This document shows positions 1-397 of a DNA stretch of 397 bases, piece after piece. Every line of letters starts with the position of its first letter. Position 1 is the first letter of the stretch. The position numbers and the translations under genes were made by a program. Source of the DNA: Escherichia coli (lineage in GTDB: Bacteria; Pseudomonadota; Gammaproteobacteria; Enterobacterales; Enterobacteriaceae); assembly GCF_003334315.1 (NCBI RefSeq), contig NZ_QOWR01000135.1; one strand, given 5' to 3'. Below the pieces are notes generated by a model. It ran no database searches. It saw only the letters and a program-made list of their open reading frames with translations, and was not told the origin of the DNA.

Positions 1-159
1 CAGCCTGCCGTGACGGTCATACCGGTAAAGATAGTGCGCGTCACGGGCGATACGGTTATCCGGCCACATGCTGAGGGTGCTGTCCGGGTGCAGCTCCGGG
101 TCGGGCAGGCGGTTACCTGCCGGGTCTGTGGCATACGGGATATCAATGCCCAGGTTACA
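1..159 (-). CDS. Rhs-family YD-repeat protein, internal core fragment (partial; 5'-truncated, 3' end continues beyond window position 1); probable orphan rhs cassette or rhs pseudogene
   Basis: Reverse-complement frame with codons 159-157 down to 3-1 is open for 53 codons: [53 protein letters not shown]. It ends in the Rhs/YD-repeat signature Y-R-Y-D-x-x-G-R-L and closely resembles, from memory, an E. coli Rhs core segment (...[40 protein letters not shown]). GC about 63% versus about 29% in the adjacent spacer. The same frame stays open upstream to 186 ([11 protein letters not shown]-rich, no Rhs similarity) and is closed by TAA at 189-187; the open stretch 186-1 has no ATG/GTG/TTG before the Rhs-like sequence (first in-frame ATG is at 69-67). 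Confidence 0.85.
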
Positions 160-321
160 TATAATAATAAGAGCAATTAACTTAATTTATTTGTTTATAA
201 TGCGCTTACTTAATACAAACCATTGAATATACCCTCCTGACAGAAAATAAAGCCATATTATTATCGCCATAATATACTTACTATCAATCCTTACGCCAAT
301 AATGTCTGATACAGTCCCTAT
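160..321. other. AT-rich spacer (about 29% GC) between the Rhs core fragment and IS1
   Basis: Hand count gives 46 G+C in 161-320, against 95 G+C in 1-150. The composition changes abruptly around 150-160, where the Rhs-like sequence ends. Confidence 0.7.
187..321 (-). pseudogene. 3' remnant of an ORF interrupted by IS1 (hypothetical small hydrophobic protein; possibly an Rhs-associated immunity gene)
   Basis: Minus-strand frame starting at 321 is open for 44 codons (IGTVSDIIGVRIDSKYIMAIIIWLYFLSGGYIQWFVLSKRIINK) and stops at TAA 189-187. The other two minus-strand frames hit stops within their first 12 codons (TAG 320-318 and TAA 293-291; TGA 286-284). The open frame abuts the IS1 end at 322, and within IS1 the same frame has a stop at 339-337, so it is not read out of the element. 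Only internal ATG is at 270-268, with no convincing Shine-Dalgarno. Confidence 0.3.
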
Positions 322-344
322 GGTGATGATGCCAACTTACTGAT
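322..344 (+). repeat. IS1 left terminal inverted repeat (IRL, about 23 bp)
   Basis: GGTGATGATGCCAACTTACTGAT at the element boundary. Contains an IHF-like site on the complementary strand (about 333-345, CAACTTACTGATT read as YAANNNNcTGATW, 5/6 in the conserved hexamer); IHF binding within IS1 ends is established knowledge. Confidence 0.8.
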
Positions 345-356
345 TTAGTGTATGAT
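329..356 (+). promoter_or_regulatory. insA promoter (PIRL), partly within IRL: -35-like ATGCCA (329-334), 16-nt spacer, -10 TATGAT (351-356)
   Basis: Hexamers read directly from the sequence; -10 TATGAT is 5/6 to TATAAT. The IS1 transposase promoter is known to overlap IRL and to be repressed by InsA binding there. Exact hexamer assignment is my inference. Confidence 0.45.
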
Positions 357-376
357 GGTGTTTTTGAGGTGCTCCA

Positions 377-397
377 GTGGCTTCTGTTTCTATCAGC
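377..397 (+). CDS. insA: IS1 InsA (transposition regulator / N-terminal part of the InsAB' transposase), first 7 codons only
   Basis: GTG start at 377-379 preceded by Shine-Dalgarno GAGGTG (366-371, 5-nt spacing) and an in-frame TGA at 365-367. Codons GTG GCT TCT GTT TCT ATC AGC give (M)ASVSIS, matching the InsA N-terminus MASVSISCPSC. Frame ends exactly at the window edge. Confidence 0.85.

Follow-up and report, generated by a model that had tools for sequence, protein, structure and literature searches.

Regulatory leader peptides and minigenes, among them ermCL, the cat-86 leader and the lambda bar minigenes, occupy 5′ leaders, where they are accompanied by defined RNA switches downstream or encode specific peptides. 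Initiation inside genes is described for Escherichia coli in the Ribo-RET study of Meydan et al. (10.1101/520783), which counts 74 out-of-frame internal sites, shows out-of-frame starts that yield peptides of 2–5 residues, such as the 5-residue birA ORF, and indicates that start-stop sites can modulate the host gene. A Shine-Dalgarno (SD) motif is reported neither to suffice for the definition of a start site nor to be required for it (PMC7043885; 10.1101/520783), and SD-like sequences within genes are depleted mainly where expression is high (PMC5100845). For the Rhs systems, a layout of toxin, immunity and orphan genes has been established (PMC3150448; PMC7043789).

Here we analyze a perfect SD hexamer followed by ATG and a five-codon reading frame in a window of E. 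coli DNA, by which we mean the whole stretch of 397 nucleotides under study (contig NZ_QOWR01000135.1, assembly GCF_003334315.1). We report that this arrangement is, with a probability of about 0.9, a by-product of the codons for G-G-Y-I-Q-W-F in the AT-rich gene ybfB and has no selected role in initiation. The original prediction had left three readings side by side, namely a fossil translation-initiation region, a short leader peptide or chance. The last of these is upheld, more exactly as a by-product of coding constraint in a reading frame that is the C-terminal part of annotated ybfB, and the first two are set aside on grounds given below.

The rhsC-ybfB-ybfO locus and its IS1 insertion

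By megablast against complete E. coli genomes, the window falls in the rhsC-ybfB-ybfO region, and every gene lies on the window's minus strand; the three-part layout of the window follows the annotation of L001, a nearly identical locus, and that of K-12 MG1655 (L002). Positions 187–321 (minus strand) hold the 3′ remnant of ybfB, comprising the last 44 codons (I65–K108) and the TAA stop, and the corresponding stretch of L001 carries the PGAP annotation "ybfB, missing N-terminus". This segment equals K-12 b0702 base for base (L002 5969–6103), where ybfB is intact with 108 codons, and is 100% identical over all 135 nt to the K-12-derived BW25113. Among 5426 complete E. coli genomes, 2684 contain it with at least 95% identity. 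Because 2603 of these 2684 carry it at 99% or more, the constancy of the motif within E. coli is uninformative on selection.

Downstream of ybfB, an AT-rich spacer recognized by frame and composition (157–186, minus strand) leads from the ybfB stop to a 5′-truncated orphan Rhs core fragment (1–156, minus strand), which the annotation of L001 and L002 and its similarity to RhsC identify as the ybfO/rhsO pseudogene. The orphan fragment shares 95% protein identity with RhsC residues 893–1249. GC content rises from about 13–30% in the ybfB part to 55–72% in the Rhs core part, with the jump at about 140–160, and homology to rhsC (from nt 2695, residue 893) starts abruptly at about 159–141, in the same place. 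The ybfB stop (189–187) and the orphan Rhs core also share a reading frame, to which the spacer belongs, with a single TAA and 9–10 AT-rich codons between them. This shared frame and the abrupt onset of rhsC homology are probably just the recombination scar of the orphan module. Opposite the GC-rich Rhs core, the plus strand has two ORFs without supporting annotation, at 10–180 (56 codons) and 68–226 (52 codons); long antisense frames are common in coding DNA of high GC content, and these two are most likely of that kind.

Comparison with the uninterrupted K-12 gene puts the junction of ybfB with an IS1 element between 321 and 322, after codon 64/65. The remaining 76 nt (322–397, plus strand) are the left end, or IRL side, of the element: they match IS1 copies annotated as encoding IS1 family transposases and carry the terminal IR and insA-side sequence; the opposite end of the element lies beyond the window. 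The IR variant in the window, GGTGATGATGCC, is one base off the IS1 copies in L001, L009 and L010. The exact junction in one piece was found in none of the complete E. coli genomes, and a scan for it in one genome per species, GGTGATGATGCC included, likewise gave no match. In L001, an IS1 (4321–5088) lies 1 bp from the window's junction and is flanked by the 9-bp duplication CAGTCCCTA. Other IS1 sites fall in the same AT-rich stretch that spans the rhsC tip and ybfB: in L015 the element sits between the two genes, and in L009 elsewhere in the stretch, which gives the region the look of an IS1 hot spot. Because ybfB is inactivated by IS1 in this genome, any role of the motif tied to ybfB expression is moot here.

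The intact gene has a consistent neighborhood. In K-12 the ybfB start codon overlaps the rhsC stop, and the start of the ybfB homologue overlaps the upstream stop in L006, L007, L017, L019 and L020 as well. In six loci the C-termini encoded by the upstream genes are 69–93% identical to the Cys-rich RhsC tip, and one of these genes encodes a full-length DUF6531/RHS-repeat protein. The YbfB family is thus found directly downstream of, and co-occurring with, one family of toxin tips, as expected of an Rhs-CT immunity protein. The pairing of the Cys-rich tip of about 150 aa with a YbfB-type protein was seen every time (K-12, L002 5325–6103; L006, L007 and L017–L020), and the tip (69–93% identity) is better conserved than its YbfB partner (42–78%). 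We consider YbfB a putative RhsC-CT immunity protein, most likely the cognate one, because this synteny fits the established toxin-immunity-orphan layout of Rhs loci, and the RhsC tip and YbfB would then form an uncharacterized toxin/immunity pair. YbfB itself had no match in Pfam, NCBIfam or PDB; in the C-terminal 250 aa of RhsC only the RHS core domain was recognized by Pfam and NCBIfam, the toxin tip being without a match, and PDB gave none. A "YbfB" discussed in a 2018 BMC Biology paper is an unrelated protein of B. subtilis.

The motif within the ybfB reading frame

Read on the minus strand of the window, the motif consists of AGGAGG (238–233), the spacer GTATATTCA (232–224), ATG (223–221), the codons GTT TGT ATT AAG and the stop TAA (208–206). 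The original prediction had described an SD, a 9-nt spacer, an ATG and the five-codon ORF MVCIK between 238 and 206, and on re-reading every coordinate proved exact. Its further statement that the motif overlaps a larger ORF, in which the hexamer encodes S-G-G, is also correct: the motif lies within a 27-codon ORF (270–187, minus strand) that is YbfB from the internal Met82 to the stop. In the frame obtained by alignment to K-12 ybfB, the hexamer (233–238, minus strand) is tcA GGA GGg, over S92-G93-G94; the out-of-frame ATG (221–223, minus strand) is caA TGg, across Q97-W98; and the TAA that ends the out-of-frame mini-ORF (206–223, minus strand) is agT AAg, over S102-K103. Motif and mini-ORF together occupy codons 92–103 of the 108 of ybfB, with the hexamer 16 codons before the stop. 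In K-12 the ATG falls at NC_000913.3 734066–734068.

In its anatomy the arrangement corresponds to an out-of-frame internal start site, with an SD-like motif and a start codon of another frame inside a gene. Its hexamer is complementary to the 3′ end of 16S rRNA, and the distance to the start codon is a workable one (AGGAGG, 9 nt, ATG). How often such a pattern arises depends on what is held fixed. Of 200 dinucleotide shuffles of the whole window, 21 contained AGGAGG on one strand or the other and 3 contained AGGAGG-N4-10-ATG; when only the AT-rich part (160–321, 28% GC) was shuffled, the frequencies were 0.025 and 0.004. Measured against composition alone, the motif is uncommon per window, with about 100–170 expected per genome. 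Given the residues S-G-G-Y-I-Q-W and the codon usage of the family, the probability of AGGAGG with ATG is about 0.08, and that of GGAGG with ATG about 0.34. In 150 kb of E. coli K-12 there are seven AGGAGG-N4-10-ATG sites, three of them at annotated starts (hyaE, yfeS and cysA); the other four lie antisense to ycbZ and inside helD, etk and 23S rRNA, and are followed by ORFs of 1–30 codons.

Hydropathy gives YbfB three hydrophobic segments, at residues of about 1–25, 44–67 and 80–103, and predicts a small three-segment membrane protein with the motif in the third segment. This location would suit a programmed elongation pause, in which the anti-SD pairs with AGGAGG and slows the ribosome while the last transmembrane segment of YbfB inserts. 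Pauses associated with SD sequences have been credited by later work largely to footprint-size selection. SD-like pause elements have been proposed for membrane-protein mRNAs (PMC4359368), and the predicted nature of YbfB agrees with that proposal, but slowing of elongation by SD-like sequences is itself controversial (PMC5100845). Moreover, the motif comes 16 codons before the stop and past both earlier hydrophobic segments, which is too late for targeting, and its wobble positions are unconserved. We therefore give a pause very little credence.

Conservation across the family and expression of ybfB

The preferred reading, a by-product of coding, makes the arrangement follow from a few residues. 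Gly93-Gly94 is written GGN-GGN, and a preceding codon ending in A together with GGA for Gly93 produces AGGAGG; Gln97-Trp98, as CAA TGG, places an ATG in the +2 frame; and AT-rich codons supply an early stop for the mini-ORF. On this reading, nothing in the arrangement is kept beyond the demands of the protein sequence and AT-biased codon usage.

To follow these positions in distant relatives, we used a search of 5.8 billion proteins and a profile search of 1.84 billion representatives (83 matches at E<=0.001). Seventeen YbfB-family members, with identity down to 28%, were aligned as proteins, and nine lineages keeping Gly-Gly were compared at the DNA level. Two candidate homologues (P0025 and P0026, L013 700–900) were dropped, their DNA being C-to-T converted throughout in a way that looks like bisulfite reads; their "variants" are artefacts and not natural alleles.

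The family carries the motif G-[YF]-x-Q-W-F near its C-terminus. G94, Q97 and W98 are invariant in the 17 proteins, F99 is nearly so, and the ATG is therefore forced by the protein; in all nine Gly-Gly lineages the codons are CAA TGG, so that all nine have the ATG. Whether the SD part is present is decided by wobble bases and by G93; eight of the 17 proteins have S, A, V or W in place of G93, and AGGAGG is excluded in those eight. Among the nine Gly-Gly lineages, the hexamer site reads AGGAGG in three, xGGAGG in two, GGGGG in two and GGTGG in two, and its free positions thus vary as neutral wobble sites would. The equivalent out-of-frame ORFs are 5, 5, 5, 5, 23, 5, 6, 30 and 9 codons long, and their peptides differ, with only M-V in common, which is forced by W-F. 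Conservation of the SD-ATG arrangement among homologues, the check that the original prediction had proposed, is accordingly divided: the SD varies, and the spacing and the ATG are kept, but only through the protein motif G-[YF]-x-Q-W. Across nine lineages and 17 proteins, neither the SD nor the ORF is conserved beyond what the overlapping coding frame requires. The protein accounts for the bases that are conserved, the free ones vary, and we therefore infer that the arrangement is a by-product of coding that lacks a function of its own.

An alternative is that ribosomes bind the ybfB mRNA at AGGAGG-N9-AUG, translate MVCIK and stop, with a regulatory consequence such as interference with the ribosomes that are finishing ybfB, or the holding of ribosomes on the message ahead of ybfO-ybfC. 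The perfect 6-nt anti-SD complement, the usable 9-nt spacing and the AUG all suit such a start, the AT-rich and weakly structured region would be accessible, and initiation is plausible if the RNA is made; the out-of-frame sites in E. coli known from the Ribo-RET study (10.1101/520783), the birA ORF included, offer a precedent. At least GGAGG is retained in five of the nine Gly-Gly lineages, a 5-codon ORF was reported for six of the nine (the listed lengths include five of 5 codons), and with only nine lineages compared, weak selection may be at work. Against this, the SD is lost or weakened in the other four lineages and in every family member without G93, the length and peptide of the ORF are unconserved, the protein motif accounts for all conserved bases, and the downstream context differs among homologues. 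Meydan et al. (10.1101/520783) themselves find most of the Ribo-RET out-of-frame sites to be unconserved.

The expression data for ybfB bear on the same alternative. At the annotated ybfB start, INRI-seq gave peaks of 143–213 in all five in vitro replicates, and the in vivo Ribo-RET value (Meydan et al.) is 0 (PMC9825163 Table S2); the synthetic ybfB fragment used for INRI-seq ends at about codon 51, upstream of the motif. The PIRT-seq tables do not mention ybfB. Because its own start is without an in vivo Ribo-RET peak, ybfB does not appear to be highly expressed, and this lack of an in vivo initiation peak even at the gene's own start also counts against a used start inside it. At the ybfC start (NC_000913.3 735650) a peak was recorded in vitro and also, with a small value of 9.6, in vivo, and at the ybfB start (733776) in vitro only; the orphan partner ybfC seems to be translated when the main ybfB is not. 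Taken with the family comparison, a used start at the out-of-frame AUG with a regulatory effect appears improbable; adventitious initiation there may occur. The more specific form of a regulatory start, an out-of-frame "decoy" that adjusts how much of the presumed RhsC immunity protein is made or that puts ribosomes on the message before ybfO-ybfC, is a shade less probable again; if true, it would make the motif the only strong ribosome-binding site left on the remnant transcript of IS1-split alleles.

Four promoter-like hexamer pairs occur in the window, against 1.1 expected. Two sigma-70-like pairs lie on the minus strand inside the ybfB remnant, upstream of AGGAGG, at 287–260 (TTGATA-16-GATAAT) and 299–271 (TTGGCG-17-TATATT). 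Promoter-like sites of this sort are what acquired DNA rich in AT commonly shows, and AT-rich loci of this kind are often silenced by H-NS.

The motif could also be read as the fossil ribosome-binding site of a gene that was once separate, or as a leader peptide controlling the downstream orphan Rhs module; for this would speak its appearance and its place upstream of the orphan Rhs fragment, at a distance of about 50–80 nt. In all relatives, however, one continuous protein of about 105–125 aa runs across the motif site, and no gene starting at the motif ATG was found in any homologue examined. The site of the supposed fossil initiation region is the third hydrophobic segment of a single continuous protein, of 108 aa in K-12, and that reading fails. 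The leader peptide fares no better: the motif lies near the 3′ end of a coding sequence and not in a 5′ leader, and its SD strength, ORF length and peptide are unconserved. A terminator scan of the window found no terminator-like site, a search of the window against Rfam gave no match at E<=1, the fold of 170–290 was not more stable than its shuffles (z=+0.58), and neither a terminator- or antiterminator-like structure nor an alternative structure was seen downstream of the motif. The ATG is still present in a homologue without a downstream orphan Rhs fragment (L016), and orphan Rhs and CDI toxin fragments are generally without initiation signals (PMC3150448). Both forms of this explanation are, in our judgment, highly improbable.

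Comparison with described systems

The case illustrates that a textbook-perfect ribosome-binding site and start codon can come wholly from Gly-Gly and Gln-Trp constraints in AT-rich coding DNA, and we suggest that motif scans condition on the overlapping reading frame before they flag such sites. The finding itself matters little; the surrounding locus, with its Cys-rich RhsC tip, membrane partner and repeated IS1 insertion, is of modest separate interest.

The locus, as distinct from the SD motif, compares with the Rhs toxin/immunity/orphan modules described by Poole et al. (2011, PMC3150448) and Starsta et al. (2020, PMC7043789). Like them, it has a main rhs gene with a variable AT-rich tip, a small gene overlapping the rhs stop (ybfB) and then a 5′-truncated orphan rhs with its own partner, ybfC. 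Unlike them, the presumed immunity gene is split here by IS1.

For the motif, the regulatory leader peptides and minigenes offer a partial likeness, a few-codon ORF behind a strong SD, but the ybfB motif belongs to the 3′ third of its coding sequence, no structure follows it and its peptide is unconserved. It resembles in form the Ribo-RET out-of-frame sites, such as the birA ORF of 5 residues, sfsA and the start-stop sites (10.1101/520783): they too combine an SD-like motif with a start codon of a different frame and an ORF of very few codons. What defines those sites is an experimental initiation peak or toeprint, whereas the ybfB motif is known from sequence and its host gene lacks an in vivo initiation signal.

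The ybfB motif is most like the SD-like sequences that occur within genes: its complementarity to the anti-SD comes from Gly-Gly codons in a poorly expressed, AT-rich and horizontally mobile gene, and its variation at wobble positions among relatives fits the purging of such sequences mainly from highly expressed genes (PMC5100845). Nothing material sets it apart from them; the ybfB motif has, in addition, an AUG at a usable distance, and that AUG is forced by Gln-Trp.
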